From the IMG/VR virus record IMGVR_UViG_3300005573_001166, positions 64,001 through 128,000 of that record: DNA of 64,000 bases, one strand, 5' to 3'. Below are positions 27,151 through 52,590 of this stretch, one piece after another. This DNA is from a virus. The notes beneath the pieces were generated by a model that made no database searches, had not been told where the DNA came from, and saw only the letters and a program-made list of their open reading frames with translations. The stretch's first letter is position 1. The number at the start of each line of letters is the position of its first letter. Both the position numbers and the translations under genes were made by a program.

Positions 27151-28848
27151 TTGAGGGTAGCAGATTATATAACAGATTTTATCTATAAGTTAGGAGTAGA
27201 TACCGTCTTTACATTGGTCGGCGGCGGGTCTATATACCTAGACGATAGTTTAGAGTTGCATCCTAACATGAAATATATATGTGTTTGCAATGAGGCTACC
27301 GCTCCTATGATGGCAGAAGCCTATGCTAGGATAAAGGGGGGAATGGGAGCAACATATGTTACAACAGGTCCTGGAGGTACTAATGCTGTAACTGGGTTAG
27401 CAGAAGCCTATGTAGATTCTGCACCTATAATAATCATATCGGGTCAAGTTCCTCTTAAACATACTACGCATTTACTAAACAAATCGGGGGAAAGGCTTAG
27501 GACGTTCGGTACGCAGGAATTAGACATTATCAGTGTAGTTAAGCCTTTAACAAAGTATGCAGAAATGATAACAGATCCTAAAAGTATAAGGTATCACTTA
27601 GAGAAAGCTGCTTATTTAGCGGCTAAAGACAGAAAGGGGCCTGTTTGGTTAGATATTCCTTTAGATATACAAGCTGCAGAAATAACTCCCTCTGCATTAG
27701 AAGGCTTCACTCCAGAGGATGAAAAGGAAGAGATACTGTATGCGGATTTATGTAAAGTAATAGACTATTTACAGAGAGCAGAGAGGCCTCTAATAATAGC
27801 GGGTCAAGGTATAAGGGCTTCTAAATCGATACCTATATTCAGGAAGCTAGTACAGATGTTAAACATACCTATAGTATTCTCTAGATTGGGACAGGATCTA
27901 TTGCCCCACAATCATCCTAATGTTATAGGACATGGGGGTACAAAAGGTATTAGAGCAGCTGCTACTATTATGAGAGAGGCGGATGTGATTTTATGCCTAG
28001 GTTCTCGACTCTCTATACCTTTCGTCGGTGATAATTTAGAAATGATATCTGAGGATGCAGAAATAATAGTGGTAGATATAGACTTTGCAGAGCTTAGAAA
28101 ACCCGGAGTACTTATATCTTTAGCAATACAAGCAGATGTAAGTGATTTCATAAAGCAGCTTATTAACCTTTTATCTGAGATAGGTATAAAGGATCACAGC
28201 AACTGGATGTCTTACTGTAGAGATGTTAAGGAAAGGGAGGCTGTTAAACTTACGCAATTTACTGGTAATCCTATAAACCTATACTGGTTTTTATACAAAC
28301 TAGATCTATTCTCAGAAGACTATCATATCTTTATAAGTGATGCAGGCTCTAGTTACTTTGTATCCGGCCAGATGCTAAAATTTGAGAGAGGGCAGAGAGA
28401 GATTACATCAGGAGCATTTGCATCTATGGGACTTACAATCCCGCTAGCTATAGGAACTGCTGTTGCTTGTCCTAATAAACAAATATTAGCTGTAACAGGA
28501 GACGGCTCTCTAGAACTTAATATGCAAGAGTTAAAAACGATGGCGTGTAATAGACTTAACATAAAGCTTTTTGTTATTAATAACGGAGGATATGCATCTA
28601 TTAGAAATACGCAAGATGCTTTACTTGACAGCAGATATGTAGGATCTAATCAATACGAAGCAGGTACCTTAAATCTAAAGGCACTAGCTGATACTTTCGG
28701 ATTAGATTACTATAAAATAGACGATTGGAAGACCATTGACAAACAATTAAACGTAATTACCAAAGAAGACACCCCTGCCTTTATAGAAGTAATCTGTACC
28801 CCAAAACAAATCATACTAGAAAAAAAGAATAATTGGGGAGAGGTATAG
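27151..28848 (+). CDS. Acetolactate synthase-like ThDP-binding carboligase (YerE-like)
   Basis: NEATA.MMAEAYAR, VTTGPGGTNA.TG, GPVWLDIPLDIQ, GDGSL..N.QEL...NNGGY. Confidence 0.88.
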   Translation: MRVADYITDFIYKLGVDTVFTLVGGGSIYLDDSLELHPNMKYICVCNEATAPMMAEAYARIKGGMGATYVTTGPGGTNAVTGLAEAYVDSAPIIIISGQVPLKHTTHLLNKSGERLRTFGTQELDIISVVKPLTKYAEMITDPKSIRYHLEKAAYLAAKDRKGPVWLDIPLDIQAAEITPSALEGFTPEDEKEEILYADLCKVIDYLQRAERPLIIAGQGIRASKSIPIFRKLVQMLNIPIVFSRLGQDLLPHNHPNVIGHGGTKGIRAAATIMREADVILCLGSRLSIPFVGDNLEMISEDAEIIVVDIDFAELRKPGVLISLAIQADVSDFIKQLINLLSEIGIKDHSNWMSYCRDVKEREAVKLTQFTGNPINLYWFLYKLDLFSEDYHIFISDAGSSYFVSGQMLKFERGQREITSGAFASMGLTIPLAIGTAVACPNKQILAVTGDGSLELNMQELKTMACNRLNIKLFVINNGGYASIRNTQDALLDSRYVGSNQYEAGTLNLKALADTFGLDYYKIDDWKTIDKQLNVITKEDTPAFIEVICTPKQIILEKKNNWGEV

Positions 28849-28900
28849 TAATTACATACCCCTACAACAGAAAGGCCTTTATAGGGGGTTTTAGGCCGTT
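28848..28900. repeat. Dispersed dyad element, copy 1 (centre plus right arm)
   Basis: GTAATTAC at 28848-28855, then AAAGGCCTTTATAGGGGGTTTTAGGCC at 28871-28897. Confidence 0.75.
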
Positions 28901-28929
28901 TTAGCCGTATTTTAAGGAGAGATTTAAAT

Positions 28930-29727
28930 TTGAAAGATATATCGTTTTTAAAGCGCAAGGCTAATCAATTTAGGGTAGATGTTTTAAGGAAAACGTATGA
29001 GACAAAAAAAGGTCACATAGGAGGAACTTTCTCCTGTATAGATATTTTAGTATATCTATATTACAATCTACTGCATATCCCATCGCCCACAGATAGTAAT
29101 AGGGATAGGGTTGTAATAGGTAAGGGACATATATGTTATGCTTTATATTGTATATTTGCAGATTTGGGTTGGATAGATAATGAGTTACTAGATGAGTGGG
29201 GTAAAAACGGTAGCTTTTTAGGGGGACAATTACACATAGATACTCCTGGGGTAGAGTATAGTTCTGGTTCTTTAGGGCATGCAGTAGGAGTTGGGGCGGG
29301 AATGGCTTGGGTAGCAAAGCATGATGGTAGAAAGTTTAAGGTATATGCTTTAATAGGAGATGGGGAGTGTGCTGAGGGGTCTATATGGGAGGCAATATCT
29401 TTTGCTGTAGCTGCTAAATTAGACAATCTAATAGTGATTGTAGATAGTAATAAGTTATCTGCTACAGATGTATCAGATGACCCTTTGCTTCCTAAAAAGT
29501 TTGAGTCTTTTGGTTGTACTGTTTATAGGGTAGACGGTCATGATTTTCAGGCATTAGATAACTGTTTTTCCAATATCTCTGGTCTGGGCCCCTCTGTTGT
29601 TATAGCCGATACTATAAAAGGCAAAGGTATATCTTTTGCAGAGCATGTTGCTAGGTGGCATAATGGTATCCCGAGTGAGCAGGAGTACTTTTCAGCTTTA
29701 ACAGAGTTAAGCGCCTTGGGAGTATAA
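28930..29727 (+). CDS. Transketolase, N-terminal subunit
   Basis: GHIGG.FS..DIL, RDR..IGKGH, SSGSLGH, GDGECAEGSIWEA...D.N, TIKGKG. Confidence 0.9.
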   Translation: MKDISFLKRKANQFRVDVLRKTYETKKGHIGGTFSCIDILVYLYYNLLHIPSPTDSNRDRVVIGKGHICYALYCIFADLGWIDNELLDEWGKNGSFLGGQLHIDTPGVEYSSGSLGHAVGVGAGMAWVAKHDGRKFKVYALIGDGECAEGSIWEAISFAVAAKLDNLIVIVDSNKLSATDVSDDPLLPKKFESFGCTVYRVDGHDFQALDNCFSNISGLGPSVVIADTIKGKGISFAEHVARWHNGIPSEQEYFSALTELSALGV

Positions 29728-29728
29728 A

Positions 29729-30595
29729 ATGGATATAAGAGATGTATTATTTGATACCGTATACGAGTTAGCAGCTGCGGATGACAGATTAATCTTTATA
29801 ACTGCAGATGCCGACGCATTTAGTTTGCATAAGTTTAAGAAAGATTTCCCGGATAGATTTATAAATATAGGGGTTGCCGAGCAGGCTTTAATAGATGTAG
29901 CTGCTGGTATAGCATTGACAGGTAAGAAGGTTTTTGTATATGCTATTACTCCTTTTATTACGATGAGGGTGTTTGAGCATATCAAAACTACCATGTGCGC
30001 TATGAATTTACCTGTAGTTATTATAGGGTTAGGTGTAGGCTTATCTTTTGGAAATGACGGCCCTACTCATCATGCTACCCAAGACATCTCAATAATGAGA
30101 GCATTGCCTGAATTGTCTATATACAATCCCTTTGACGCTTTTACCGCTAAAGAAAGTATAATAGAAGCGTATGAGGGGGGTGCTCCTAGCTACATACGGC
30201 TGGATAAAGGGGAGTATCCTAACAGGGAATATGAGTATAAGAGTGGAGTAGCCGTTAGAAGGGTTTTTACTGCAGACAGATTGATAATAAGTACGGGTAC
30301 TATAGTACATACTATATTAGAGGTAGACTCTTACAGCGATGTATGGAGCATAGTTAAATTGAAGCCTCTTTGCATAAAGGAACCTTTTGGATATAAAGAG
30401 GTATTTGTAATTGAGGAGCATTCGAAGACTGGAGGGTTGGGATCTGCTTTGAAGGAAAGTTTTCCTAGTTTAGAGTTCAGGCATTACTGTCTACCTGATG
30501 AGCAGATATTTAAATATGGAAGTAGAGAGTATTTATTAGAGCTTTTCGGTTTAGGTAAAAAATCTTTATCAAAAATTTTAGGAGGAAAGATGTGA
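29729..30595 (+). CDS. Transketolase, C-terminal subunit
   Basis: FPDRFINIGVAEQ, GPTHHATQD, YIRLDK, EEHSKTGGLGS. Confidence 0.9.
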   Translation: MDIRDVLFDTVYELAAADDRLIFITADADAFSLHKFKKDFPDRFINIGVAEQALIDVAAGIALTGKKVFVYAITPFITMRVFEHIKTTMCAMNLPVVIIGLGVGLSFGNDGPTHHATQDISIMRALPELSIYNPFDAFTAKESIIEAYEGGAPSYIRLDKGEYPNREYEYKSGVAVRRVFTADRLIISTGTIVHTILEVDSYSDVWSIVKLKPLCIKEPFGYKEVFVIEEHSKTGGLGSALKESFPSLEFRHYCLPDEQIFKYGSREYLLELFGLGKKSLSKILGGKM

Positions 30596-31509
30596 GGATA
30601 ACTATAGAGGATCTAGTTGAATCTTTTGGGGCAACGGCGGAAGATATACCGACAGAAGTAAAAGACTTACTTATCTCAAATCCTTTAGAGTACGAGATAT
30701 TAGAAGGAAAGGATAAGGAGGAGGTTATACTAAAAGTACTTAAAAAGATTTATTCCGATCAACAAAAGGTAGGAACAGAGGAGCGTAAGGAGGTTTGGTT
30801 TAGGGGGTGGAAGGAGAATTTGGACGCTTATAGAGAGAGCAGAGACTTAAAAGACCTAACTCCTAAATTTATAAGGCCCAACTCCCCTATTAGATTTAAA
30901 GGCAACTTTATACAGCCCACAGTGCATAATTTTGAGTTAGACTTTTTCCACTTATTTAGAATTTACCTGTTTAAGAAGTATTTTAAGGGCTTTAAGTATA
31001 TATACGACTTCGGGTGCGGCTCTTGTTTTAACACAGTAATCCTTGCTGCTTTATTTCCGGACTCAACCATTACAGCATTAGACTTCGTTTCTAGTTCTAT
31101 GGAAATAGTAGACGAATTGAAAAAAGACTTCAGCAATATACAAGGCCATTTATTCGACTTAACCCTTCCCAATTATAACGTAAAACTGGAAGAAGAGAGT
31201 CTAGTATTTACGTCAGGTACTATAGAACAAGTAGCTTCCAAGTTTTACCCTTTCTTAAATTACCTACTATATTATAAACCTAAACTCTGTGTCCACATAG
31301 AACCTGTTATAGAGCTATATGACGAGAACAATTTGTTAGATTACTTGGCTATCTTGTTTCATAGAAAAAGAGGCTATAGTACCGGATTTCTACCAGCGTT
31401 ATATGCACTGGTAGAGCTGCGTAAAGTGGAAATATTAAAGGTAAAAAGGCTTCATTTTGGAAGCATGATGATGGAAGGTTTTACTAATATAATCTGGAGG
31501 CCGCTATGA
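30592..31509 (+). CDS. Class I SAM-dependent methyltransferase
   Basis: IYDFGCGS motif I, ALDF, FDLT; lies within the sugar cluster. Confidence 0.75.
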   Translation: MRITIEDLVESFGATAEDIPTEVKDLLISNPLEYEILEGKDKEEVILKVLKKIYSDQQKVGTEERKEVWFRGWKENLDAYRESRDLKDLTPKFIRPNSPIRFKGNFIQPTVHNFELDFFHLFRIYLFKKYFKGFKYIYDFGCGSCFNTVILAALFPDSTITALDFVSSSMEIVDELKKDFSNIQGHLFDLTLPNYNVKLEEESLVFTSGTIEQVASKFYPFLNYLLYYKPKLCVHIEPVIELYDENNLLDYLAILFHRKRGYSTGFLPALYALVELRKVEILKVKRLHFGSMMMEGFTNIIWRPL

Positions 31510-32279
31510 ATCTAGGTTTAAAAGATAAGGTTGCTATAGTAACTGGGGGCAGTCATGGTATAGGTCTAGCTATTGCCCAAGCACTTGCAACAGAAGGCTG
31601 TAAAGTGGTAGTATGTTCTAGAGATCCTATCAAACTTAAGGCTGCTTACGAAGCTGCAAGTAAGGCAATTCTTACTATACAAGCAGACATGACGAAGGAT
31701 GAGGATATACACAAGTTAGTAGATACTACTATAACTAGTTTTGGAACAGTACATATACTTGTAAACAATGTAGGAGGAGGGGGAAGATGGGGCAAGGAGG
31801 ATGTATTAGAGACTCCTTTGCAGGTTTGGCAAGAAGTATACGATAAGAATGTAGGTGCTGCGGTTAAATGTACTTTAGCTGTATTACCTTATATGGTAAA
31901 ACAGAAATGGGGTAGGGTAGTAACTGTAACATCTACATTAGGTAAGGAAGGTGGGGGGAGGCCTTGGTTTAATGTAGCTAAGACGGCAGAAACCGCCTTG
32001 ATGAAAAACTTTGCTTTGAATAAACAATTTGCACGGTGTAATATAACTTTCAACAGTGTTGCCCCTGGCTGTATTATGATTCCTGATACAGGTTGGGATT
32101 TGGAGCAGAAAAGGGATCCGGAGGCATTCAGCAAAATGGTAGATGAGAAATTCCCTTTAGGCAGATTAGGTACTCCGGAAGAGGTTGCATCTGTAGTAGC
32201 ATTTATATGCTCAGAGCAAGCCAGCTTAGTAAACGGGGCATCTATTTTAGTAGACGGGGGAGAGAGCAGGTGTTTCTAA
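31506..32279 (+). CDS. Short-chain dehydrogenase/reductase
   Basis: VTGGSHGIG, LVNNVG, NSVAPG, PLGRLG.PEEVA, VDGG. The catalytic YxxxK appears as FNVAK. Confidence 0.88.
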   Translation: MNLGLKDKVAIVTGGSHGIGLAIAQALATEGCKVVVCSRDPIKLKAAYEAASKAILTIQADMTKDEDIHKLVDTTITSFGTVHILVNNVGGGGRWGKEDVLETPLQVWQEVYDKNVGAAVKCTLAVLPYMVKQKWGRVVTVTSTLGKEGGGRPWFNVAKTAETALMKNFALNKQFARCNITFNSVAPGCIMIPDTGWDLEQKRDPEAFSKMVDEKFPLGRLGTPEEVASVVAFICSEQASLVNGASILVDGGESRCF

Positions 32280-33567
32280 CAGACTGTACTTTGATTATCA
32301 CAACCTACAACAGACCTAACTATTTAGATTACTACAGTTTATATACTCCTTTGACGTTAATATGCCTATATTAGTTGCAGATGCTAGTATGTTGGAGATA
32401 CACAAGCGGAATATTGACTTGCTAAAGAAATACAACGTCAAATATATATATTTGCCTGATGAATTCTTTATGGAGGCTATATCACGATCGTTAATGCTAG
32501 TTAATAGTAATTTTGTAGCATTTTGCCAGGACGACGATTTTATATTCCCCGATTTTATAGCAAGTGCGGTAGACTTTTTAACAGACAATCCTGATTATAT
32601 AATATGTAATGGAAGGTATGCGATAGGTGGTGAAGGCAGCTAACTTTTACAATCTAACAAAGAAGCTGAGCATGAGGATCCTCTTGAAAGGTTAACAGAT
32701 TATATGGGAAGTATGTCCCCTACTTTATTTACTGTGTGACAGACAAAAGGGATTTTAGAGCTACTCCCTTATTTTAATTTGTATCCTTATTACCACCCAC
32801 TACAGGAAATAACATGGACTTGTTTTCCTATGTTACTAGGAAAAATGAAGGTAATAGATAGCTTAAGTAGCATACATGTTATACACGGCACCAACCTTGC
32901 ACAGAGGAACCCAAATATGCCGTATTTAGGTAGTTGGGTAGCTAGTGATAAGCTTACAACGGAAATATTATTAACAACAAATGCAATAAACAACTTACTA
33001 CGTACAAACATTCCTCTATATGAGATAAAAAGCGCTTTTATACTGGGACTTTTACGATATTTCTCTAGTTTCGCTTTTATATTCAAACCAGTTCTCCCGC
33101 CCCCTTTAATCAGGTACGGCGAATCTATACCAAGGTATGCTCCTTTTGTAAAAGAGTTTATTAAAAGTTTATGTCCTATAGAAAGGACAGATAGTTTTGA
33201 CTCAGGAATTTATTTCAGTACAGCTTTCATTACGTCAACAGGGGTAGAGCCTAACCAAGAGTATGTCTCTCAGAGGGCTAAACAGATAGAATCGAGTAAG
33301 GAAAGGTTAAAGTGTCGGCAAGAGGTATTTGATGGCAACCTTTCAGAAAAGCTATATACTTTCAAGTATATAGAAGCTGAAAGTAAGGGATTTACGGATA
33401 CAACTCTTTTAGAATTATTGTTTGCACAAGAGTTCTTTCACAGTATAGAGGGGTGCTATATACCGGATTTCGAACCTGCTGCACTGTTGTATAAAAGAGC
33501 AAATTTACCCCACCCTCAACTTTCACATGCTTTATCGTTAATATCCAGGTATTCAAAAGCTATTTAA
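32270..33567 (+). pseudogene. Disrupted GT2 glycosyltransferase, paralog of 33585..34898
   Basis: Starts GTG-FLTDCTLIITTYNRPNYL. Frameshift near 32327, in-frame TAA at 32641, and TGA at 32737 where the intact paralog has Trp. Confidence 0.85.
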
Positions 33568-33584
33568 ACTTTGGAGGCGAAGAG

Positions 33585-34898
33585 ATGTCTTTAAAAGACT
33601 GTACCTTAGTAATACTAACATACAATAGGCCTAACTTTCTAAACAGGCTACTGCAGTTTTTACACTCATACGGTATAGATATTCCCATACTTGTTGCAGA
33701 TGCTAGTAATCAGAAGATACACCGTCGAAATATAGAGTTACTGCAAAAATACCCCAACACTGACTGTATCTATATACCAGATAGGCAACCTATAGATTCT
33801 ACCGTTTTAGCTGCATCTGTATGTAGCAGTTCTTATATAGCGTTTTGCCATGACGACGATTTTACATTTCCAGATTTTCTAACAGAGGCAATAGATTTTC
33901 TAAAAAGAAACCCTGATTATGTTTTATGTACTGGGCGGTACGGTATATACGATGGAGAGATGACGATACAATCTAACACAAGCTGCGAGTTAGACGATCC
34001 TTTAGAGAGATTGTCTTTTTACCTTTCTAATATGTCTCTTACCCTATTCTCTGTATGGCGCAAGGAAGCAGTTTTAAAACTATCAGCATACAGTGCATTA
34101 TATCCTTATTTTCACTATATGCAAGAGATAGTATATACTAGTTTTTGTGTGCTGTTAGGAAAAATAAAGGTATTAGATAAACTTTCTGTAGTTAGGGTAC
34201 ACCATAGTACCAACCTAGGAAAGAAGGTTCCGGGTTCTTATTGTATAGGAAATGAGATAGTCAACGGCTTCGATGCAGATACAGCACTAGCGGTAAAAGC
34301 AATAAAGGAGATTCTACCTAATAAGTCTGAGCAGGAGATACGTACTGCATTTATCAGCGGGCTTCTGAAACATTTCTCCAGTTTTGCTTTTCTACATCTA
34401 CCTCACTTCCGAAGTAAATTATCAGATTACAATGTTGTTGATATAGATAGCTACTCCCCTCTTATACAAGAGTTTGTATCTGAGATATGCCCCGTATCTA
34501 AAACTACCCCCTTTAGCATGGGGGAGTATTTTGAGAAAGTATTTAAAGCTAAATCAGAAGTACAGATTAACTATCAGCCTTATTTGCTTGAAAGAGAAAG
34601 GCAGATGGAATTAAACAAACCTCGACTTGAATATTGGAAGCAAGCCTTCCTTAGTGACCTGCATAAAAGGTTACACAACTTCAAATTTATAGAAGTAGAG
34701 GAGAAGGGGTTTACAGACACTGAGTTAATAGACCTTTTATTTTTGAGAGAATTTTTTTGTAGTATAGAAGGTTGTTATATACCAGAGTTTGAACCTGCCT
34801 GCATAATATGTAAGAAGATAGGACTTGAGAGTTCAGAAGTAAGGGAGACTTTAGAGTGTTTGAAGTCTTTAGTTGACCGATATCCTATAGGAGTTTAA
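33585..34898 (+). CDS. Glycosyltransferase GT2 (TIGR00180-like)
   Basis: LVILTYNRPNFL, LVADAS, FCHDDDF, FL..NPDY. Confidence 0.82.
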   Translation: MSLKDCTLVILTYNRPNFLNRLLQFLHSYGIDIPILVADASNQKIHRRNIELLQKYPNTDCIYIPDRQPIDSTVLAASVCSSSYIAFCHDDDFTFPDFLTEAIDFLKRNPDYVLCTGRYGIYDGEMTIQSNTSCELDDPLERLSFYLSNMSLTLFSVWRKEAVLKLSAYSALYPYFHYMQEIVYTSFCVLLGKIKVLDKLSVVRVHHSTNLGKKVPGSYCIGNEIVNGFDADTALAVKAIKEILPNKSEQEIRTAFISGLLKHFSSFAFLHLPHFRSKLSDYNVVDIDSYSPLIQEFVSEICPVSKTTPFSMGEYFEKVFKAKSEVQINYQPYLLERERQMELNKPRLEYWKQAFLSDLHKRLHNFKFIEVEEKGFTDTELIDLLFLREFFCSIEGCYIPEFEPACIICKKIGLESSEVRETLECLKSLVDRYPIGV

Positions 34899-34902
34899 AA
34901 AC

Positions 34903-35631
34903 ATGATATCTATCGTTTCTTCCACAGCTAGACCGTTACTATGGTTAGATTTTTACAAGCATCTAGGTACGAATAAAGTAGATTTTGAGGTGATTTTTGT
35001 AGGCCCCAATGAGCCGGATTTCCAACTACCTTCAAATATGCGTTTTATAAAATCACCTGTAAAACCGGCTCAGTGTGTCGAAATAGGTACTAGAGCTGCA
35101 AATGGAGACTATTTACTGGTAACAGCAGACGATCTATTTTTCCAAGATCCTCATCCCTTAGATACCTTATTAGAGGACTTCCTAAGCTATGAAAATGATA
35201 AATTGATGCTTTCTTCTGGATATGCTTGGTACTCACCGACAGCACCGGAAGGTTATGTTAAACTGGGACCAGACTTTCACAAAAGTCCTGAAATAGATGG
35301 TAAGCATTATATACTCCCTGTAGGGTTTACGATAAGAAGGGATTACTATAGATATCTGGGAGGTGTAGATAGAAGGTTTATTGCTTTATATTGGGATTTA
35401 GATTTATGCTATAGAGTAATAAGGGACGGAGGTATTACAGCCTTAAGTAGAGTTACGGCAGTAGAAGTTGTAGTTGCGGGTGTTCTATGCTTGGAGTATC
35501 AGGGTATAGATATGAATCAAACACTTCACGGTTTATGGGGGGATGACTTTATAAGAAAATCTCCGGTAGAGCCTTTTGATGATTATAACATATTAACAGA
35601 GTCTCAAGGGCCGAAAGGAAGATGGGTATGA
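34903..35631 (+). CDS. Glycosyltransferase GT2-like, copy A
   Basis: ISIV, FEVIFV, ANGDYLLVTADD, YLGGVDRRF...WDLDL.YR. Confidence 0.78.
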   Translation: MISIVSSTARPLLWLDFYKHLGTNKVDFEVIFVGPNEPDFQLPSNMRFIKSPVKPAQCVEIGTRAANGDYLLVTADDLFFQDPHPLDTLLEDFLSYENDKLMLSSGYAWYSPTAPEGYVKLGPDFHKSPEIDGKHYILPVGFTIRRDYYRYLGGVDRRFIALYWDLDLCYRVIRDGGITALSRVTAVEVVVAGVLCLEYQGIDMNQTLHGLWGDDFIRKSPVEPFDDYNILTESQGPKGRWV

Positions 35632-36611
35632 AGAAGATAGCCGAATTCTTTAAAGGTAAAAACATTCTTATAACAGGGGGTACAGGTATGATAGGTAGGG
35701 CGATTATAAGACAACTATATCAAATCCCCTGTACCCTTGTAAGTGTTTCACTGGACGATATAACCCTTCCTGGAGTAACTTGTATAAAAGGGGATTTGGC
35801 AGACTTTAACTTCTGTAAGGAGATAACAAAAGGAATAGATTATTGCTTTCACGTTGCCGGTATAAAAGGATCGGCTAGTGTAACAACTACCAAACCTGCC
35901 AGTTTTTTTGTCCCTCTGCTCCAGATGAATACTAATATTCTAGAAGCTTGTAGACTTAACAACGTAGAAAAAATAGTATATACTAGTTCCATAGGAGCTT
36001 ATAGTAGCAAAGATGTATTTAAAGAGACAACCGACATCGAGACGGATCTACCCATGGACGTGTATCCTGGATTTGCTAAGAGAATGGCAGAGTTACAGAT
36101 AAGAGCGTATAACATACAATACAAGCTGTCCAACTTTGCAATAGTTCGTTTATGTAGTGTATATGGGCCGGGAGATAGTTTTGACCCTAACTCGGCAATG
36201 GTGATACCTGCCCTCATATATAGAGTATACCACAAGGTAGAAGATCCTGTTGTTATATGGGGAGACGGATCTGCTATAAGGGATTTCGCTTACTGCGATG
36301 ATATAGCGGTTGGTATAATAAAAGCATTGCATTTTGGAACTAAGTCGAGATATTACAACTTGGGTTCGGGCAAAGGGGTTAGTATTAAACAATTAGTAGA
36401 AACTTTGAGGAAGATAGTTGATTTTAATTATGTTTTTGACACTTCCGTACAGGTGGGTTATTCTAAAAGGGTTATGGACATCACATTAGCTAGAAAGTAT
36501 TTAGACTACAAACCTACTACATCTCTGGAAGCGGGTTTAAAGAAAACATATGATTGGTTTTCTCTCAATGCTAAAGCTTATAAACTAAAAAAGAACTATT
36601 TCCAAGAGTAG
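35628..36611 (+). CDS. NAD(P)-dependent epimerase/reductase, GDP-fucose synthase-like
   Basis: ITGGTGMIG, YGPGD.FD....VIPALI, WGDGSAIRDF. Confidence 0.85.
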   Translation: MKKIAEFFKGKNILITGGTGMIGRAIIRQLYQIPCTLVSVSLDDITLPGVTCIKGDLADFNFCKEITKGIDYCFHVAGIKGSASVTTTKPASFFVPLLQMNTNILEACRLNNVEKIVYTSSIGAYSSKDVFKETTDIETDLPMDVYPGFAKRMAELQIRAYNIQYKLSNFAIVRLCSVYGPGDSFDPNSAMVIPALIYRVYHKVEDPVVIWGDGSAIRDFAYCDDIAVGIIKALHFGTKSRYYNLGSGKGVSIKQLVETLRKIVDFNYVFDTSVQVGYSKRVMDITLARKYLDYKPTTSLEAGLKKTYDWFSLNAKAYKLKKNYFQE

Positions 36612-42114: not shown

Positions 42115-42117
42115 GTT

Positions 42118-43143: not shown

Positions 43144-43145
43144 GC

Positions 43146-45374: not shown

Positions 45375-45394
45375 TTTAACATACCCAAAATCGC

Positions 45395-45483
45395 CTCTAA
45401 AACCCCCTATAAGCCTCTTTTATAAATTTTATATGTAATTACTACTAAAAAATTAAAAAGGCCTTTATAGGGGGGAATAGGCC
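45395..45483. repeat. Dispersed dyad element, copy 2 (complete)
   Basis: CCCCCTATAAG (45403), central palindrome GTAATTAC (45435-45442), AAGGCCTTTATAGGGGGGAATAGGCC (45458-45483). Confidence 0.85.
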
Positions 45484-45502
45484 TTTTTAAGGGAGGTTTA
45501 GA

Positions 45503-46510
45503 ATGATATTTAGATTAATTGGGAAGGCAGATAGATATAAAACAGATTTTGGGGGTCAAAAAGCATTAATAGACATACTTAACGGTATGCATAATGCGGG
45601 GTATCAGACAGAGTGGGTTTCTTATTTCGGCAACTTTATAACTAACGAATTGTTTAGGGCAAGTATTCCTAATACAAAGGTACTTACAACAGTGCAAGAG
45701 ATGTTACAGCCTTGTGATATTTTTATGTTGTTTGTAGGTTCTCAGGCTAAATCTTTTGGTAAGGAGGCTTGCAAGGTATTTAATGATATACCTAAAGGGG
45801 CTAAAAAAGTTATCAGCTTGAATACTGTTTTGGGGCAGGTTGCTGATTACACAACTGAGGAGGGTAGAGCTGCTGCATGGGCTAGAGAGTTTGATCTTTA
45901 TATATTTGAGAATACGGCTTACATGAAAAAGTTTCTTTCTGTAGTTCCTAATAGGAAAGCTATAGTACTACATCCTTGTGTAGATATATCTCCTTTTTTG
46001 AAAATCTCTCCTACCTTCCAAGAGCCAATACATGTAGTAAGGTTAGTGTCTAGACCTAAAACAAAAATCCCTAGAAACACTAACGATTTAATACTAAAGA
46101 TTAGAGAATACCAACCTAACTGTATTTTTAGCTTTATGGAGTACACTGACTATATAATGGATGCCCCTTATATATATAAATACCATAGAGACCAAATACC
46201 TCCTCCAGAATTTTTGGCCAGAGGTAATTGTTTCTGGCATCCGTTACCTCCAGGGGTGGGGGAACCAGGTCCCAGAGTTATTGTAGAGGCTATGGCAGCA
46301 GGGCTACCTGTAATTGCTAACGGAGGAGATGGTCCTAAAGACAGGGTAACGCCTGAAACAGGTTGGCATGTAAACTCCTTAGACGAGATACCTGAAATCT
46401 TTAAAGGGTTAACTGTTGCAGAGTTAGAGAGAAAAGGGAAAGCGGCTAGGGAACGGGCTATTAGCGAATTCGGAGTTACTCCTTGGGTAAATGCAATTAT
46501 TAATGAGTAG
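45503..46510 (+). CDS. Glycosyltransferase GT4; paralog of the C-terminal domain of 43146..45374
   Basis: FGGQK, EPGPRVIVEAMAAGLPVI, KDRVTPETGW shared with the upstream gene. Confidence 0.82.
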   Translation: MIFRLIGKADRYKTDFGGQKALIDILNGMHNAGYQTEWVSYFGNFITNELFRASIPNTKVLTTVQEMLQPCDIFMLFVGSQAKSFGKEACKVFNDIPKGAKKVISLNTVLGQVADYTTEEGRAAAWAREFDLYIFENTAYMKKFLSVVPNRKAIVLHPCVDISPFLKISPTFQEPIHVVRLVSRPKTKIPRNTNDLILKIREYQPNCIFSFMEYTDYIMDAPYIYKYHRDQIPPPEFLARGNCFWHPLPPGVGEPGPRVIVEAMAAGLPVIANGGDGPKDRVTPETGWHVNSLDEIPEIFKGLTVAELERKGKAARERAISEFGVTPWVNAIINE

Positions 46511-46521
46511 GAGAAAGGAAT

Positions 46522-47706
46522 ATGAAGCTTTGTTTCTTTACTATGGCTAATAATAAACGATATGATTGGGCGTATAGGTTAATTTTGTCCGGAGAAGCAG
46601 TGAAGAGGCCTATTTGGTTTTTCAGAATACCAGACGGACACCCAGATCCCAAGAGGTATAAAATAGAGCTGCTAATGGGCGATCTATTGCCAGAAGCAGA
46701 TAAATATATCTACCTAGATAGCGATGTTCTTATGTTACAACATGGAGATTGGGAGTCAGAAGAAGCATATGGAGCTGTTAGCGAGGAAAAATTCCATATA
46801 AGTTCTAAAAATGCATTCTCAGATGAAAAAGGCTACAAAGCTTACTGCGATTTATTTGCTAAATACAATTATCCTACTAGAGTTAACACAGGAGTTGTAG
46901 TATTGCCTGGTAGTATTAGAAAGCAAGTAGGTGAAAGGTGGAAGTATTGGTGCGAGTATATAGAGTCCTTATGTGAACTACCGATGAAACTAAGAGACCA
47001 GCCTCAATTTCCTTTTGTTATGTGTGAATTTAAAATACCTGTACTTCCCGACAGGTTTTGTGCTATAATAAAGAGAGAAAGTGTACGTTCTGACCATATC
47101 GCTTTACATGCTTCCGGCCATCCTAGAGGAGATGATTTAAACCAATATATTAGTGCCGCTAATAAGCTACTAGGGGAACAGGTAGTAGGTGGTGGCGGTA
47201 AAAGGTGGCATGTACTTACCAAACTTATTATTCAATATGCTCCAAATCCTACATATCCTGTGGGTGCAGAGGTAGGGGTTTACAGAGGAGAAAATGCTTT
47301 CCATTTACTTGATATATTTCCCGGCTTAAAACTTCACTGTATTGACAATAGAAAGCTTACAAATCCTGAAAAGCACCTAGCTAGGGCCTTTGAGGATTGG
47401 GAAAGAAATAAACGGCCTTACATGGACCGTATTATAGAACATACAGTAGATTCAGATAAGGCTGATTTACCTGCAGAATCTTTAGACTACGTCTTTATAG
47501 ATGCAGATCACAGAACCGATGCTGTTGTTAAGGACATAAAGCACTATCTCCCCCTTGTAAAAAAAGGAGGGTTTATAGCAGGACACGATATAGATTACAG
47601 AGGAACTTATTACGGTAGAGATAGTGTTAGAAATGCTGTAACGGCAGTATTTGGGAACGACTTTCAAACCGGTGCCGATCATACATGGTGGCATATAAAG
47701 AAATAG
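46522..47706 (+). CDS. GT8-like glycosyltransferase fused to a SAM-dependent methyltransferase
   Basis: YIYLDSDV, NTGV, DQ (GT8-like); GAEVGVYRG, DYVFIDADH, VKKGG.IAGHD (methyltransferase). Confidence 0.8.
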   Translation: MKLCFFTMANNKRYDWAYRLILSGEAVKRPIWFFRIPDGHPDPKRYKIELLMGDLLPEADKYIYLDSDVLMLQHGDWESEEAYGAVSEEKFHISSKNAFSDEKGYKAYCDLFAKYNYPTRVNTGVVVLPGSIRKQVGERWKYWCEYIESLCELPMKLRDQPQFPFVMCEFKIPVLPDRFCAIIKRESVRSDHIALHASGHPRGDDLNQYISAANKLLGEQVVGGGGKRWHVLTKLIIQYAPNPTYPVGAEVGVYRGENAFHLLDIFPGLKLHCIDNRKLTNPEKHLARAFEDWERNKRPYMDRIIEHTVDSDKADLPAESLDYVFIDADHRTDAVVKDIKHYLPLVKKGGFIAGHDIDYRGTYYGRDSVRNAVTAVFGNDFQTGADHTWWHIKK

Positions 47707-47716
47707 GTTAATAGAA

Positions 47717-49060
47717 ATGCCTACCCCCTTTGTTTGTACTATAGGAAGAAAAAATAGAGACTATACCCATCTCTCTACTTGGGAGAATGCTATTAAGTGT
47801 AATTTAACTGCTTCTACTACTAAAGTATACAGCTGTACTAAATCTACAGGTAATACTTATCCACTTAGAGATAGCAGTACAGTATACCTTTATAGCGGTA
47901 ATGTTAAACTAGATTGCACTGCTAAACTACACCATGCTACCGAGTCCCAAGCACTTTTATCTAATATAAAAGGTTCCGTCGCTCCTCAAATAGGGCACAG
48001 TTTCAGGGAAAGCTTGAAACACGATTATATTACTTTAACAGATAACGGAGATTCTGTTATTGCTGTAGCAGAGTGTTACAACGACACTCTAGAGGATTTG
48101 TGGGATAATGTGACTTTTAAAGGTTGGAAGACAAGTAGCGATAACTACATAAAAATATATACCCCCACGGAAGAAAGGCATACAGGAGTAGAAGGTACCG
48201 GCTTTAGTATATACAATCCAGGAATCAACGATATAATAACTTTATACGACGTTGATGTAGTAATAGAAGGCATTGAATTTAAAGGAGGAGCTAAACAGAT
48301 TGCATGTATATATACTTCTCCAAAAACTATTACTATAAACTCCTGTATTTTACATGATAACTACTACGGACCTCTTATAGCCCCTCCAAAGATTGCAGGG
48401 GCGGTTATAAAGATATACAATTGTATAATGTATGACAGTAGGCAGTCTGTTATCTCCTCTTGTTCTCCTAGTACGTTATATGTCGAAAACTGTACTATAT
48501 ACAATCCCGGTTTTGGATATGGAGTAGTAGATGGGCAATGTTATAACGTAGTAGTATTTAGAAGCAACAACAGTATAGCATGTTTTGGTAGTAATACTAC
48601 AGGAGATTACAACTGCGACGGTACTAGTTCTGGTTTAGACGGCACTGCTCCTGGCGGACATTCACTTCATAATACATCACTTAGAGACATTAACTGGTAC
48701 AATGTTGTAGATTATAGAACTGCTATGAACTTTTTTACATGCGAGGGAAGCGTACTTATAAACAGAGGCATTACTAGAAAAGAAGGAGATATAGGTTTTA
48801 ACACCGATATTTTAGGGGTAACTAGGGAGGGATATTACTGGGATATCGGTGCTTTTCAGGCAGGGGGCTCTTCTGCATATAGCTCATCAAGTTCTTCATT
48901 TTCAAGTGAAAGCAGTAGTTCTTCTAGTTTTAGTAGTTTCAGTTCCAGTTACTCTTCCTCGTCTTCATCAAGTGAGTCTGTAGCAGAATACCTTCTACTA
49001 AGAACACAGGCCGATCTTTTGCGTTTAAGGGATTGGCAACAGCGAGGAAGGATACGTTAG
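47717..49060 (+). CDS. Virion surface protein with parallel beta-helix-like repeats and a C-terminal Ser-rich tract
   Basis: DY..LS.WE, INSCILHD/IYNCIMYD/VENCTIYN stacks, DIL...R...WDIGAFQ, then 29 Ser in 37 residues. Confidence 0.7.
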   Translation: MPTPFVCTIGRKNRDYTHLSTWENAIKCNLTASTTKVYSCTKSTGNTYPLRDSSTVYLYSGNVKLDCTAKLHHATESQALLSNIKGSVAPQIGHSFRESLKHDYITLTDNGDSVIAVAECYNDTLEDLWDNVTFKGWKTSSDNYIKIYTPTEERHTGVEGTGFSIYNPGINDIITLYDVDVVIEGIEFKGGAKQIACIYTSPKTITINSCILHDNYYGPLIAPPKIAGAVIKIYNCIMYDSRQSVISSCSPSTLYVENCTIYNPGFGYGVVDGQCYNVVVFRSNNSIACFGSNTTGDYNCDGTSSGLDGTAPGGHSLHNTSLRDINWYNVVDYRTAMNFFTCEGSVLINRGITRKEGDIGFNTDILGVTREGYYWDIGAFQAGGSSAYSSSSSSFSSESSSSSSFSSFSSSYSSSSSSSESVAEYLLLRTQADLLRLRDWQQRGRIR

Positions 49061-49070
49061 GAGGTATAAG

Positions 49071-50021
49071 GTGACTTGGACACAGAGAGTGTTGTCTATA
49101 CTAGAGTCGGATAAGAAGGCTACATTTAACACATTATATAAACTGTGCCCCGGTATAAAGAGAAAATATTTAAGTAACTTATTGTATAGGTTGCAAAACA
49201 GACAGATAATAAAGAAAGAAGGGGATTTCTTTCTACTAGTAGCTCCCTATGATTCTCATTTTCCTGGAGTTCAACTGCCCATAATTAGGCATAGAGTTAC
49301 AGATTATAGTTTTACGGGGGAAGTAATAAAATTTGGGGTAGTGTCAGACAGTCATTTAGGATCGGTGTATGATAATGTCCCTTTATTGAAAGCTGCATAT
49401 GATGTATTTGATAGAGAAGGTATTACTAAAGTATTTCATGCAGGAGATATATGCGATGGAGAGCATATGAGACAAGGACATGAGTATGAGCTTAGAGTAG
49501 TAGGTTTTGACAAGCAGTGTGAATATGTAGTCAACGAATACCCCCATAGAGAAGGTATAGAGACTATTTTCTTATGCGGCAACCATGACATGTCTTTTTG
49601 GAAATACAGTGGGGTAGATATTGGAGTACATATTGCAAGACAGAGGCCTGATCTAAAATACATAGGTACCCTAGAAGCAGATATTACCCTTACTACTACT
49701 ACCGGTAGTACTACAGTAAGGTTATGGCATCCTTTGTTGGGGTCTGCATATGCTATTTCCTATCACCCACAAAGATATATAGAGTCATTATCTGGAGGGA
49801 GCAAACCAGGTATATTAATAATAGGGAATTTCCATAAAGCAGAGTGGCTTTTTTATAGAAACATACATACCCTTCAACCAGGGTGTTTACAATTTCAAAC
49901 CAGGTGGATGAAAGGCAAACGTATATCAGCACATTTGGGTTTCTCTATTGTAGAAGCTCATCTATGCGATAAAGGCGTTGCCAGACTAAAGTTTGAATTC
50001 TTTCCTGACTATGATTCATAA
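49071..50021 (+). CDS. Calcineurin-like metallophosphoesterase with N-terminal winged-helix
   Basis: VSDSHLGS, HAGDICDG, GNHD, LWHP, GNFH. Confidence 0.82.
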   Translation: MTWTQRVLSILESDKKATFNTLYKLCPGIKRKYLSNLLYRLQNRQIIKKEGDFFLLVAPYDSHFPGVQLPIIRHRVTDYSFTGEVIKFGVVSDSHLGSVYDNVPLLKAAYDVFDREGITKVFHAGDICDGEHMRQGHEYELRVVGFDKQCEYVVNEYPHREGIETIFLCGNHDMSFWKYSGVDIGVHIARQRPDLKYIGTLEADITLTTTTGSTTVRLWHPLLGSAYAISYHPQRYIESLSGGSKPGILIIGNFHKAEWLFYRNIHTLQPGCLQFQTRWMKGKRISAHLGFSIVEAHLCDKGVARLKFEFFPDYDS

Positions 50022-50700
50022 TCCTAAATTAGTAGGTTCTAACGTAATAGATTGTATACCTGTTGCAGGTAGGTGTCCCAACAACTGCAACCCTTGCTTC
50101 TATAATGAAGGGGAATTTTTTCATGATATAAACGAGCCTTTGATTCCTACATTAGAGGAGGTAGGAGATAAGATAGTAAGGGTTAATTCAGGTAGAGACT
50201 CTACTATAGATTTTGAGGAAGTCATACAAAAAACCAAACAGTATCCAAAAAAATTTTACAATACTAGCTTAAGTGATAAGATTACAGAATTTCCTGCTCC
50301 TGTAGTATTTACATGTAACAGGAAGAACCACTTAGTTACTCTTTTGCTTAAAAATACGAACCTTATGTTTGTAAGAGTTAGAACTGCTTATTGGAATACA
50401 GACATTGTAAATATTGCAGTAGAGCATTATACTAGCATGGGGATACCGGTAGTATTAACTTTTTTATACTTTAGCGATAGGCATATAGGCAACTCATTTC
50501 CAATAGAGCACTTAGATAAATATGAGAAAGTAAAACACGTAGTAAACGATAGGTATTTTATCAAACCGGAGTATTGGAAGCAGATAGTAAGTAGATACAA
50601 AAACAAGTCAGATGTTTATACTTGCGGTACGTTAAAAGACCACACATGTAAAAGTTGCAGAAACTGCGAACGACTATACTACAGATATACAGGGGGGTGA
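50011..50700 (+). CDS. Radical SAM-like Fe-S protein
   Basis: CPNNCNPCFY (CX3CX2C) and a C-terminal TCG...TCKSCRNC cluster. Confidence 0.6.
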   Translation: MIHNPKLVGSNVIDCIPVAGRCPNNCNPCFYNEGEFFHDINEPLIPTLEEVGDKIVRVNSGRDSTIDFEEVIQKTKQYPKKFYNTSLSDKITEFPAPVVFTCNRKNHLVTLLLKNTNLMFVRVRTAYWNTDIVNIAVEHYTSMGIPVVLTFLYFSDRHIGNSFPIEHLDKYEKVKHVVNDRYFIKPEYWKQIVSRYKNKSDVYTCGTLKDHTCKSCRNCERLYYRYTGG

Positions 50701-50706
50701 TCACTT

Positions 50707-51501
50707 TTGGAGTTTATATACGTAAACGATAATTGGCCTTTTAGAGTTCAAACATATGAACCTGATGGCACTGCTATTACGGTAGACTCTGCTACTGTAA
50801 CTATCACTAAACTAGAGACTATGGAAAAGGTAGTAGACGGAGCTGCTGCAACAATACATTCGGGGTATGTAGAGTATATAGTAACGAATACGATTACTTC
50901 GGAAACGGGCAACTATATAATAGACTGGAATATAACTTTAGGAGACGTAACAAAAAGCTATAGAGAAGTCTTTCAAGTTATAGAGGTGCCTCAATATTCC
51001 TTAAAAGAGATGTCCCTTATAAATGCTTTAGCAATACGATTGAAAGATAACAGGCCTGTTTTATACAGAGTAGACGAACAAGAGAGAAAATGGCATGATG
51101 AGGAGTTATATAGTTTCTTGTATTATGCAATAGCAGATTTCAATGGTACACCTCCAGCATGGACCAATTATGGGTTTGAGGATCTGCCCCCCCAAGTATA
51201 CGGAATTATATTACTAGGAGCACAAATAGCAGCAATTATAGCAGAAGCAACCTTACAAGCTGCAAACGATTTTAGCTATAATGATAATGGATTAACCGTC
51301 ACACTTTCTAGATCAGGACATTATATGCAAGTAGCAAATGCTTTATGGAACATGTGGCTACAACAAGTACCCAAGATAAAGAGATATTTAGGATTCGAGC
51401 TGACGCATTTTGTAGGAGTAAAAACACAAAGAATGCCGGTAAGTGTAAGAAGACCTCTAAGTATGCTACCCCATTTAGAGTCCGTTTTCTCTATGAGTTA
51501 A
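50707..51501 (+). CDS. Head-tail connector/neck protein
   Basis: Ig/BppU-like N-terminus, then RLKD...W.DEEL..FL..A..DFN.TPP...NDFSY.D.G.....SRS neck-protein pattern; position before the tail genes. Confidence 0.6.
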   Translation: MEFIYVNDNWPFRVQTYEPDGTAITVDSATVTITKLETMEKVVDGAAATIHSGYVEYIVTNTITSETGNYIIDWNITLGDVTKSYREVFQVIEVPQYSLKEMSLINALAIRLKDNRPVLYRVDEQERKWHDEELYSFLYYAIADFNGTPPAWTNYGFEDLPPQVYGIILLGAQIAAIIAEATLQAANDFSYNDNGLTVTLSRSGHYMQVANALWNMWLQQVPKIKRYLGFELTHFVGVKTQRMPVSVRRPLSMLPHLESVFSMS

Positions 51502-52590
51502 AGAAAAACGGCCTATTCCCCCCTATAAAGGCCTTATTACGAATTTGTAGGTAAATATATACCCACCTACAAGAAAGTAAGTTATAGGGGGGAATAGGTG
51601 GGTTATAGGGGGGATTAAAAGACAACCCCTCCCCGTTTTAAGGTTAAAAGGTAAAAATTTGAGATTTACTGTTATTTTAGAAAACACTTTTTAACACGGA
51701 AAGCATGTAAAGCAACCGGAACTGACCTATGCAAACAGGAAGCTTAGGTTGAGCAGACAGTTGAAAGCACCTACAGTCAATCTTAAGGTTCAAACGTAGC
51801 AGCAAAGGGGGGTAGACAATTTTTTGTTGAAATTTTGGCAGACGCTGCCCCGTTAAGCCCTTATAAATAAAGGGCTGCCCCCCCGATTTTCGGTACCTAT
51901 AAGCCTATAAGCCTATAAGAAAATTCCTTTTTTCTTTTTTTTCTTTTTTTGTTTATTTTTTTTATTTTTTTAATAATATATAAAAAATATATATAAATAT
52001 ATATAAAAAATTTAAAAAATAACTTATATACCTATGTAAACAGTAGAAAAAAAAGATCTAATTTTTTCACAAAAATTTTTTAAAAAAAATTTTTATAAAA
52101 AAACTATCTCTTTTTTTTCTCCTATTTACATCTGTTGCTTCGCAACAGGACACGCAGGGAGAAGCTCTTTATTTATAAGGGTTTTGTCAATCAATTTTAG
52201 TCGTATTTTTCGATTTGGTATAAACCCTCAAACCTTTTATTTATGTAGTATTTAACAGGCAGACAGTAAGTGGTAAGATTTATAGGTGGTAGACATTTCT
52301 CGATTTGGCATAAAACTTCTGTGAGTCCTTTATTTACGTAGTATTTAGCAGGCAGACATTTTTCTGGTAGACATTTGTGGGCATTCTTGGTTTTCGGTAT
52401 AAAAACTCTTGTAAGCCTTTTATTTACATAGTATTTGTCAAATGTTGGAATAGGACACGCAACTGGATAGACATTTTCCGGTAGACATTTCTCGATTTCG
52501 GTATAAACTTTTGTAAGCTTTTTATTTACGTAGTATTTAGCAGGCAGACATTTTGGTAAGACATTCTTTGGTCTGCGGAGGTAGAGGTAT
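51502..52590. other. 1.09 kb non-coding region: putative replication origin (dyad element copy 3, AT-rich core, iteron-like repeats)
   Basis: No ORF. GGCCTATTCCCCCCTATAAAGGCC at 51510 faces TTATAGGGGGG at 51582 and 51603; triple ctataag repeat at ~51897-51919; A/T-tract core ~51925-52125; four ~90-100 bp repeats. Confidence 0.65.
52205..52570 (+). repeat. Four imperfect ~90-100 bp tandem repeats
   Basis: Units (cgat)tt(c)gg(t/c)ataaa...tttattta(c/t)(g/a)tagtattt...ggYagacatt start near 52211, 52302, 52391 and 52493. Confidence 0.85.

Follow-up and report, generated by a model that had tools for sequence, protein, structure and literature searches.

What function is served by the short elements that recur between genes in a 64,000-nucleotide stretch of viral DNA (hereafter the window), which comprises bases 64001-128000 of the 159,386-bp IMG/VR virus record IMGVR_UViG_3300005573_001166 (linear, ~90% complete)? 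The record is an uncultured hot-spring phage; near-identical DNA was found in metagenome runs labelled hot-spring, sediment and microbial-mat, and at least half of the sampled sequence words are present in four metagenome runs, two of which may be the source of the record. The original prediction described three copies of a dyad element of fixed geometry at apparent switches of local GC skew and took them for protein-bound sites of replication or recombination, with promoters or terminators as its own refuting alternative. That alternative is now the best reading, if not a proven one. Judged from the sequence, the element is a putative phage-specific promoter/operator cassette (probability about 0.55), which most closely resembles the promoter-early stem-loops (PeSLs) of T4-type phages.

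A check of the sequence recovered the three copies at the predicted coordinates and spacings, and by our own calls of open reading frames (ORFs) all of them are intergenic. The first copy (unit C) has the right arm alone, with GTAATTAC at 28848-28855 and TTATAGGGGG at 28879-28888, the left arm being absent. In the second copy (unit D), the palindrome GTAATTAC (45435-45442) lies 28 nt from each of the two runs, CCCCCTATAA (45403-45412) and TTATAGGGGGG (45465-45475). The third copy (unit E) is composed of GGCCTATTCCCCCCTATAAAGGCC (51510-51533), a degenerate core GTAAATAT (51551-51558) and TTATAGGGGGG (51582-51592), in addition to an extra box at 51603-51612. The box TTATAGGGGG (G-box) occurs six times as an exact match on both strands of the window, compared to 0.24 ± 0.49 expected from 100 dinucleotide shuffles, none of which reached six; with at most one mismatch it occurs 21 times, compared to 6.9 ± 2.7 expected. 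All eight exact plus-strand matches in the 159-kb genome are intergenic, and the minus strand has just two, which form the left arms of units D and E. Motif scans yielded further copies with the same 30/31-nt spacing, at three loci of this genome and at five loci on three other metagenome contigs; the full unit is thereby present at six loci of the genome (units A to F, Table 1), compared to the three described before.

Alignment of the copies revealed that the constant part of the element is one-sided and strand-specific. Each unit consists, in order, of a 14-bp palindrome (TAT)GTAATTAC(ATA), a variable spacer, a rigid block AAAG-N4-TTATAGGGGG(G) and a type-specific end, which is either A-type (GAATAGGCC, with an AT-rich spacer) or B-type (TTTTAGGC, with a spacer that contains G and C). 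The distance from the start of the core to the start of the G-box is 30 or 31 nt at all six loci and in nine of the ten halves on related contigs. Using an nhmmer profile of 17 halves, a forward half was found at every one of the six loci (E 3e-17 to 3e-11), whereas reverse halves were confined to D, E and, as a weak match (E=4.8e-6), F; on the reverse strand of A, B and C, the profile found the palindrome itself and nothing more. The palindrome and the inverted arms of the predicted dyad element exist, but the invariant unit is directional and the inverted arm accompanies it at only three of six loci. Given this distribution of halves, the dyad is two outward-facing units with one common palindrome, one of the two units being dispensable. 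Moreover, the arms are not kept complementary beyond the boxes of 10-11 nt, with an A-type half facing a B-type half at D and at all related loci; unit E is the exception, with arms of 17 nt that are 100% complementary. By eye, ATAGG-like boxes recur every 10-11 nt past the TATA, in the form of ATAGG, ATAGG and TTAGG in A-type ends and of three ATAGG in E. As originally proposed, the units are very likely (putative) protein-bound sites of fixed geometry, the same 30/31-nt spacing being found again in the further copies.

The placement of the units relative to genes is similarly constant. At all six loci, the forward half lies between genes and on the same strand as the genes. In seven of the 12 gene-ward halves, the next start codon lies 38-54 nt past the box, usually behind a GGAGG-like site; the distances are 39 nt at B, 51 nt at C, 38 nt at D, 42 nt at an orphan box (genome 7159), and 41, 54 and 52 nt at the related loci L042, L043 and L052, respectively. 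The remaining five have a start codon at 80 nt (F), at ~125 nt with a doubtful ORF (A), at ~215 nt behind a leader (two related loci) or none (E). Unit C starts on the stop codon of a thiamine-diphosphate (ThDP) enzyme gene (27151-28848); past the unit come AAGGAG and, at 28930, the TTG start of the N-terminal half of a transketolase. The forward half of unit D is followed by GGGAGG and the ATG of a glycosyltransferase gene at 45503, and its inverted half is directed into the 3' end of the gene at 43134-45374. Units C and D thus head sub-blocks of the glycan island, namely a split transketolase and a set of glycosyltransferase and methyltransferase genes, respectively. Unit A heads the replication block and unit F the late virion operon, while unit B, with neither hairpin nor left arm, lies directly before the head module with its protease and major head protein genes. 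The first ORF past B (genome 63786-63863) encodes a very basic peptide of 25 residues (MAVAKKKSNPKKRKRK...), ahead of a 595-aa head-module gene.

Host-type promoters are poorly matched in the same gaps. The best match to TTGACA-N16-18-TATAAT scores 6-8 of 12 in five gene-upstream gaps with a G-box, compared to 9/12 and 10/12 sites in two other gaps and a perfect 12/12 TTGACA-N17-TATAAT at window 4304-4332, in a 293-nt gap of the late region before the gene at 4539-5186. In window 28000-47999, none of 52 promoter-like and 12 terminator-like sites, both numbers being at shuffle level, coincides with a unit. Strict strand bias, a location between genes, the constant distance to ribosome-binding sites and the position of the hairpin-less unit B before the head genes argue for a signal of transcription in one direction.

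An alternative is that the units act without a promoter, as terminators or as hairpins for RNA processing or stabilisation, so that read-through RNA would fold via the C-run and G-run or via a GGCC stem and then be ended, cut or protected. As RNA at 37 °C, units E and F fold clearly better than shuffled sequences (z -4.29 and -3.93, respectively; matched by none of 200 shuffles), unit D marginally (z -1.80; 10 of 200 shuffles as good), and units A, B and C no differently from shuffles (z -1.13, +0.68 and +0.12). In favour of this, D, E and F can form long hairpins, and at A, C and D the local GGCC stem has a T-run behind it; in addition, E closes the glycan island with no gene behind it, and PeSL stem-loops with polyG/polyC tracts do terminate transcription according to the PeSL study (PMC2839356). 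Nevertheless, the three loci A, B and C have no left arm and fold at shuffle level, and the arms are not conserved as complements outside their boxes where an A-type half opposes a B-type half, at D and the related loci. The loop of the local GGCC stem measures 14 nt and the arms of the long stem are more than 50 nt apart (about 55-60 nt), which does not fit a compact intrinsic terminator (stem, loop of 3-8 nt and U-tract), and none of the 12 terminator-like sites of window 28000-47999 lies at a unit. At 75 °C only the hairpin of unit E is strongly folded (-15.8 kcal/mol), compared to -1.7 to -6.3 kcal/mol for the other units, so that folding apart from E is marginal at 65-75 °C. Furthermore, a terminator would silence the head module if it stood 25-40 nt ahead of the ribosome-binding site and no promoter lay between the two. 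We therefore consider this explanation unlikely.

The GC skew around the copies was the ground on which origins had been proposed. Hand counts had given about equal G and C upstream of each copy and about twice as much G as C downstream, which is roughly right; the local step-up is real, but the sign does not switch, and the skew is positive throughout. Over 300-nt flanks it changes from -0.02 to 0.34 at the first copy, from 0.14 to 0.37 at the second and from 0.01 to 0.16 at the third, while every 2-kb segment of the window has positive GC skew and the cumulative curve rises monotonically. Cumulative skew shows no minimum at 28.85, 45.44 or 51.55 kb, and the sole minimum of the genome lies in its first 5 kb, both for all sites and for third codon positions. 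The difference between downstream and upstream skew at the six units is 0.173, compared to -0.015 ± 0.10 at 138 other plus-strand junctions (1-kb flanks; 0 of 20,000 draws), and at third positions it is 0.36 compared to -0.03 ± 0.23 (p=0.0002; five units, E having no gene behind). A stricter Mann-Whitney test, in which the element itself was left out and 14 other long gaps served as the control, gave 0.126 against -0.016 for all sites (p=0.046) and 0.309 against -0.013 for third positions (p=0.0023), which bears out the anticipated skew step at third positions after the copies. The third-position (GC3) skew of the first gene past A, B, C, D and F is 0.31-0.63, compared to -0.20 to 0.19 in the gene before, and thus steps up past five of the six loci; past B, C and D this rise lasts for no more than one to three genes (1-3 kb). 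We read the step as strand asymmetry proximal to a promoter, which the GC3 step past five loci fits, or as a property of first genes.

These data bear directly on replication origins, whether of the iteron type or primed from a promoter, with a G-run transcript in an R-loop priming DNA synthesis. Promoter-primed origins include T4 oriF/oriG, the T7 primary origin, and those of ColE1 and mitochondria, and G-rich transcript starts favour stable RNA-DNA hybrids. The units resemble the T4 and T7 origins in being several dispersed sites in one large phage genome, each with a (here putative) promoter. The skew step downstream of five loci, third positions included, would also suit origins, as would the dyad-like layout, the AT-rich spacers of A-type halves and the ATAGG-like boxes phased by eye at 10-11 nt; moreover, a helicase, a primase, PolA and RecA are encoded by the phage itself. 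By contrast with T4, T7 and iteron origins, the units have no downstream unwinding element and no skew minimum, and coding starts 40-50 nt past the box. The proposal of origins at the copies is not supported: a cumulative-skew minimum is missing at every copy, the step fades at B, C and D over a distance far below half of that between copies, and the constant half is always on the gene strand, with a ribosome-binding site and start codon 38-51 nt on at B, C and D. Such co-orientation and fixed start-codon distance are not needed by an origin, and B- and C-type spacers are not AT-rich. Origins at the units are accordingly rated as very improbable. No higher is the chance that each unit is a promoter that also primes replication, in which the G-run transcript would stay hybridised to the C-rich template at six or seven co-oriented leading-strand start sites; if that mode were true, the saw-tooth third-position skew past five of six units would be its mutational footprint.

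A 900-bp non-coding stretch directly after copy E (window 51688-52590) is more origin-like, or more like a promoter array, than the G-box units, and its AT-only run and four direct repeats at window 51.9-52.6 kb also weigh against origins at the units themselves. It is at least 97% A/T over 51935-52019, is AT-rich from ~51925 to 52105, and carries four direct repeats of ~93-102 bp (52217-52555) with a GGTAGACATTT box in each. No gene for ParB was found in the 159-kb record.

Among the proteins encoded by the phage, we take the one at genome 17762-18550 to be a divergent phage sigma factor, the sole one in the record. A homologue with 47% identity carries PF04542, and a three-sequence profile searched against solved structures gave six matches, five of which are sigma factors (E 0.026-0.19). 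The alignment covers region 2, and a region-4-like LG(V)..RV stretch is present. Structural similarity search against the protein Atlas returned ten rows, seven of which are named sigma factors and two more of which have sigma domains, at low template-modelling (TM) scores of 0.30-0.46. The end of the sigma gene is overlapped by a gene for a fusion of a helix-turn-helix (HTH) domain with a phosphoribosyltransferase, whose proposal as a candidate binder of the palindrome is only a guess. A search for T7-type RNA polymerase (PF00940) gave no match, and is uninformative since the control was silent as well.

The phage also encodes a NusG-like protein, for which a word-index search found no homologue. 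It suggests another role for the units, that of an ops-like loading site at which the polymerase would pause at the G-rich non-template strand, pick up the NusG-like factor and read through the terminators of very long co-directional operons, those of the glycan genes among them. Every copy has its box on the non-template strand, and 154 of the 170 ORFs called in the whole record are on one strand, the plus strand. According to a review (PMC7819879), the specialised NusG paralogues RfaH, LoaP and UpxY act through leader signals on long polysaccharide or antibiotic operons, RfaH doing so via ops; the likeness lies in a specialised (here putative) NusG paralogue combined with a short non-template-strand signal at the head of long polysaccharide operons. 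Against this, the box bears no evident likeness to the RfaH ops element, no scan for ops having been run, and the palindrome and inverted halves have no counterpart in such signals and would be left unexplained. In addition, the NusG-like gene adjoins no unit, and a polymerase that merely passes a site is not expected to produce a skew step. Loading of a NusG-like factor is thus quite unlikely as the sole explanation; it is compatible with a promoter and may add to it.

The distribution of the unit among other phages was explored by pattern searches. The composite pattern has no match in IMG/VR. Its 12 single matches in scattered bacterial genomes were set aside as chance, because the taxa are unrelated, each has one copy, and a rough chance estimate (18 fixed letters, 596 Gb) is similar or higher. 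Among 24 metagenome loci with the pattern, true copies were found at five, on three contigs: Ga0078972_1002223 (65.5 kb; dyads at ~3.5, 36.0 and 56.7 kb) and two Ga0272448 contigs. The other 19 were dropped, their likeness being limited to the pattern. All five related copies are full dyads with one A-type and one B-type half. At four of them the A-type half is co-directional with the genes, its B-type partner being directed into the end of the gene upstream, and at the fifth (L042) the A-type half lies before an S8 subtilase gene on the plus strand. By blastn and tblastx, the related loci match the genome only at the unit (up to 98.5% identity over 65 nt) and at a second leader repeat, and tblastx at E≤1e-6 found no gene similarity between contigs and genome beyond these two. 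Behind the A-type half, the related contigs carry genes for ankyrin-repeat proteins. Since the cassettes are common to phages with unrelated flanking genes, they probably double as points of homologous exchange of gene modules. The lack of host-type promoters in the unit gaps, the presence of a phage sigma factor and the conservation of the unit across unrelated cargo support a one-direction transcription signal.

The cassette neighbours on the related contigs (L043:636-3043 and L048:137-943) include ankyrin-repeat genes and genes for a WD40 protein and DUF2201 metallopeptidase/VWA proteins. The second repeated intergenic leader (genome 506-2758) is common to L043:8858-9689 and L052:11480-13134, with 76-93% identity and different surrounding genes.

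In relatives recognised by the major head protein, the unit is absent within 10 kb on either side of that gene at all eight loci found, and in a scan of five whole records, single-box matches did not exceed the reversed-pattern control and none had the palindrome. The closest relative (G001) has a head protein with 90% identity and is collinear only in short patches of 64-82% DNA identity; after its orthologue of the gene at 50707-51501 there is neither a unit nor a 900-bp spacer, and k-mer repeats found in it were taken as coding from their periodicity. The head-protein relatives are too diverged to carry the motif. The B-type box alone has no match in IMG/VR and the A-type box has two, both rejected: one shows no other likeness to the unit, and the other is an unrelated tandem repeat at a contig end. 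This 16.7-kb contig (L075:1-43) ends in a (GGGGGAATA)n array, a chance match to the A-type box. The occurrence of GTAATTAC in promoter flanks of KP34-like phages was set aside as coincidental.

Dispersed copies, some with inverted ends, could also be res-like sites of site-specific recombination, or a mobile inverted-repeat element spread through the genome in the manner of miniature inverted-repeat transposable elements (MITEs). The first two copies bracket 16.5 kb of the glycan island, near-identical elements lie between unrelated flanks in other phage contigs, and metagenome contigs often break at the copies, with loose ends at 28896, 45397, 45442 and 45488. We read these ends as assembly forks at a repeat. 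Over window 28500-48499, four metagenome records carry other copies of the element and are not deletions, and none of the six joints listed in runs X1, X3, X4 and X5 links 28.88 kb to 45.46 kb, although assembled contigs may miss rare forms. Moreover, no enzyme for the proposed res-like sites was found in the ~90% complete record: neither a resolvase (PF00239) nor a tyrosine recombinase (PF00589) was found at E≤1 in the 159-kb record, while the controls were positive in 13 and 14 of 14 genomes, respectively. The interiors differ between A-type and B-type spacers, three of the six loci lack one end, and no target-site duplication was seen by eye at D, E and F; nor are a constant orientation and start-codon distance expected of insertions. 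Of the explanations considered, recombination or mobility of this kind is the least probable. One contig of run X4 skips 3,645 bp of the glycan island (window 33732-37378), which suggests a strain variant lacking this block; at the joint, 13 letters fit either side.

Comparison with known systems places the units closest to the PeSLs of the T4-type phages RB49 and phi1 (Arbiol et al. 2010, PMC2839356), in which a promoter and a G/C-tract stem-loop between stop and start form a modular exchange point. Both are short repeated cassettes between the stop of one gene and the Shine-Dalgarno sequence and start of the next (all six loci here are intergenic), combine a promoter (putative here) with a stem-loop, often of a G-tract and a C-tract, lie in plastic regions of accessory genes, and are common to phages that differ in gene content, as the related contigs do here outside the unit and leader repeat. 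PeSLs, as described there, contain a consensus sigma70 promoter and number ~50 per genome, compared to 6-8 of 12 matches and 6-7 copies here. Furthermore, the constant part here includes the 14-bp palindrome and the stem arms are ~55-60 nt apart; the stem-loop is present at three of six loci (D, E and F) and at all five related loci, whereas units A, B and C have none. The six joints of the four runs include neither a mini-circle nor an exchange product, although contigs drop rare forms. With the sigma70 promoter missing and half of the copies stemless, the units are not strict members of the PeSL family.

The units also share features with two classes of late phage promoter. Middle and late promoters that depend on phage sigma factors (SPO1 gp28 and gp33/34; T4 gp55) have in common with them a divergent phage sigma, a small promoter set, a consensus unlike that of the host, and a position before late gene blocks. 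The palindrome centre ~33 nt before the G-run is unusual for a -35/-10 arrangement, and to our knowledge the unit consensus matches no SPO1- or T4-type phage sigma promoter. Activator-dependent late promoters, such as those of Mu C and Mor and of P2 Ogr, have a dyad site just upstream of a weak core; the likeness is a dimer-type palindrome at a fixed distance upstream of a promoter with no -35 element, at a handful of late operons, whereas the palindrome here can serve two outward-facing halves. No homologue of the Mu or P2 activators was found, no search aimed at them having been made. No matching late promoter of a thermophilic phage was found in the portions of the literature at hand.

Altogether, we propose that the constant half of the cassette would be a phage-specific promoter, with the G-box block as its core or start region and the palindrome as the site of a dimeric activator/operator protein or as an upstream promoter element. 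Host RNA polymerase carrying the divergent phage sigma factor would read this promoter. At D, E and F, the C-run can pair with the G-run, and the resulting stem-loop may insulate the cassette from upstream transcription, as in PeSLs; the cassettes would probably also be points of homologous gene-module exchange between phages. Several observations weigh against this proposal. Among the sequencing runs searched, no RNA run contained DNA of the genome. The spacing of the conserved blocks misfits the usual 16-18 nt between -35 and -10 hexamers. Units D, E and (weakly and partially) F, like all five related loci, have an inverted half aimed into the 3' end of the preceding gene, which would be an odd place for a promoter; that it is kept as one side of a two-faced promoter, whose antisense arm insulates by collision, is only a guess. 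On the plus strand at unit E, no ORF of at least 20 aa starts just downstream. Replication, or differences in gene content, could also account for the skew step. Finally, the sigma scores are weak, and six-frame searches with PF04542, PF04545 and PF08281 gave nothing at E≤1; no homologue of the sigma or the NusG-like protein was found in the available parts of the related contigs or in IMG/VR, nor in five fragmentary, motif-less relatives (G001-G005), where nothing at all matched.

The genome also contains fragments of the unit. The sequence GCCTTTATAG is a direct repeat at 28777, within a decayed copy in the ThDP-enzyme gene, and at 28875. The orphan G-box block at genome 7159 (7140-7203) reads AAA(A)TGG-TTATAGGGGG, has no palindrome, and precedes the start of a GT9 glycosyltransferase gene by the 42 nt given above. 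A relic at genome 35425-35540, also without palindrome, has CTAAAACCCC and, ~70 nt on, GGGGGTTTTAGGCCGG with a GGTTATGGGGGGATTA box, and sits between a radical-SAM gene and an AAA ATPase gene. At genome ~129692-129745 there is a hairpin AAAACGGCCT / AGGCCGTTTT with a G-rich loop of 13 nt and a T-run; directly before it, the 24 nt found past the G-box in copy C recur as their reverse complement, and this region looks like a rearranged fragment of the same cassette.

The phage has no close cultured relative, the best matches of its 1524-aa head protein being short stretches of Bacillus phage G and of mycobacteriophages. The window has no Rfam match at gathering score, and window 45300-52700 has just two chance-level microRNA matches (E 0.41 and 0.83). 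No tRNA gene was found in the record outside window 6001-61000.

Table 1. Coordinates of the units and of other features of the phage, in window or genome (whole-record) numbering.
Feature	Coordinates	Strand	Remarks
Unit A	genome 10362	+	
Unit B	genome 63716	+	285 nt before the window
Unit C (copy 1), forward half only	window 28847-28902 (genome 92847-92902)	+	nhmmer 17-half model, E=2.9e-15
Unit C core palindrome	window 28848-28855		GTAATTAC
Unit C rigid block	window 28871-28888	+	AAAG-N4-TTATAGGGGG
Unit D (copy 2), forward half	window 45432-45488	+	A-type (AT-rich spacer, GAATAGGCC past the G-run); nhmmer E=5.5e-13
Unit D, inverted second half (left arm of the predicted dyad)	window 45388-45443	-	nhmmer E=2.4e-10
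Unit D core palindrome	window 45435-45442		GTAATTAC, common to both halves
Unit E (copy 3), forward half	window 51548-51612	+	degenerate core; tandem G-boxes 51582-51591 and 51603-51612; nhmmer E=2.7e-11
Unit E, inverted half	window 51504-51561	-	nhmmer E=2.1e-13
Unit F	genome 157525	+	
Decayed extra copy in 3' end of ThDP-enzyme gene	window 28753-28786	+	GTAATTAC, then GCCTTTATAG 24 nt on; no G-run
Sigma70-family protein (putative)	genome 17762-18550		Pfam Sigma70_r2 E=0.008, below family cut-off
HTH_17-phosphoribosyltransferase fusion	genome 18523-19140 (17762-19140 together with the sigma gene)		PurR-like layout; overlaps end of sigma gene
NusG-like protein, 180 aa	genome 29392-29934		10 kb past sigma gene; Pfam NusG E=6e-8; solved NusG structures E=1.2e-5; PHROG 'transcription antiterminator'
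Small minus-strand genes	genome 0-3.2 kb	-	
Accessory and glycosyltransferase genes	genome 3.5-10.4 kb		
Replication and nucleotide block	genome 10.8-63.7 kb		5'-3' exonuclease, DnaB-like helicase, primase, PolA, ribonucleotide reductase, dUTPase, SSB, RecA, queuosine-pathway genes
Head module	window 6141 (protease domain), 15749 (major head protein)		
Glycan island	window 17.5-51.5 kb		
Tail sheath, then baseplate	window 55318 (tail sheath)		
Amidase, cement protein, pectate-lyase-like spike	towards record end		

If the cassettes are promoters as proposed, they would give, from sequence alone, the regulatory code of an uncultured lineage of thermophilic phages, in which a class of non-host promoters tied to a phage sigma factor would partition a one-strand genome of 159 kb into operons. 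The idea of mobile regulatory cassettes, hitherto described for T4-type coliphages, would then extend to a distant group from hot springs. With its 60 bp, the sigma-like protein and the candidate HTH protein, the unit offers a concrete test substrate, and the skew step, a measurable signal, could reveal in what way base composition at high temperature is shaped by transcription or by replication.

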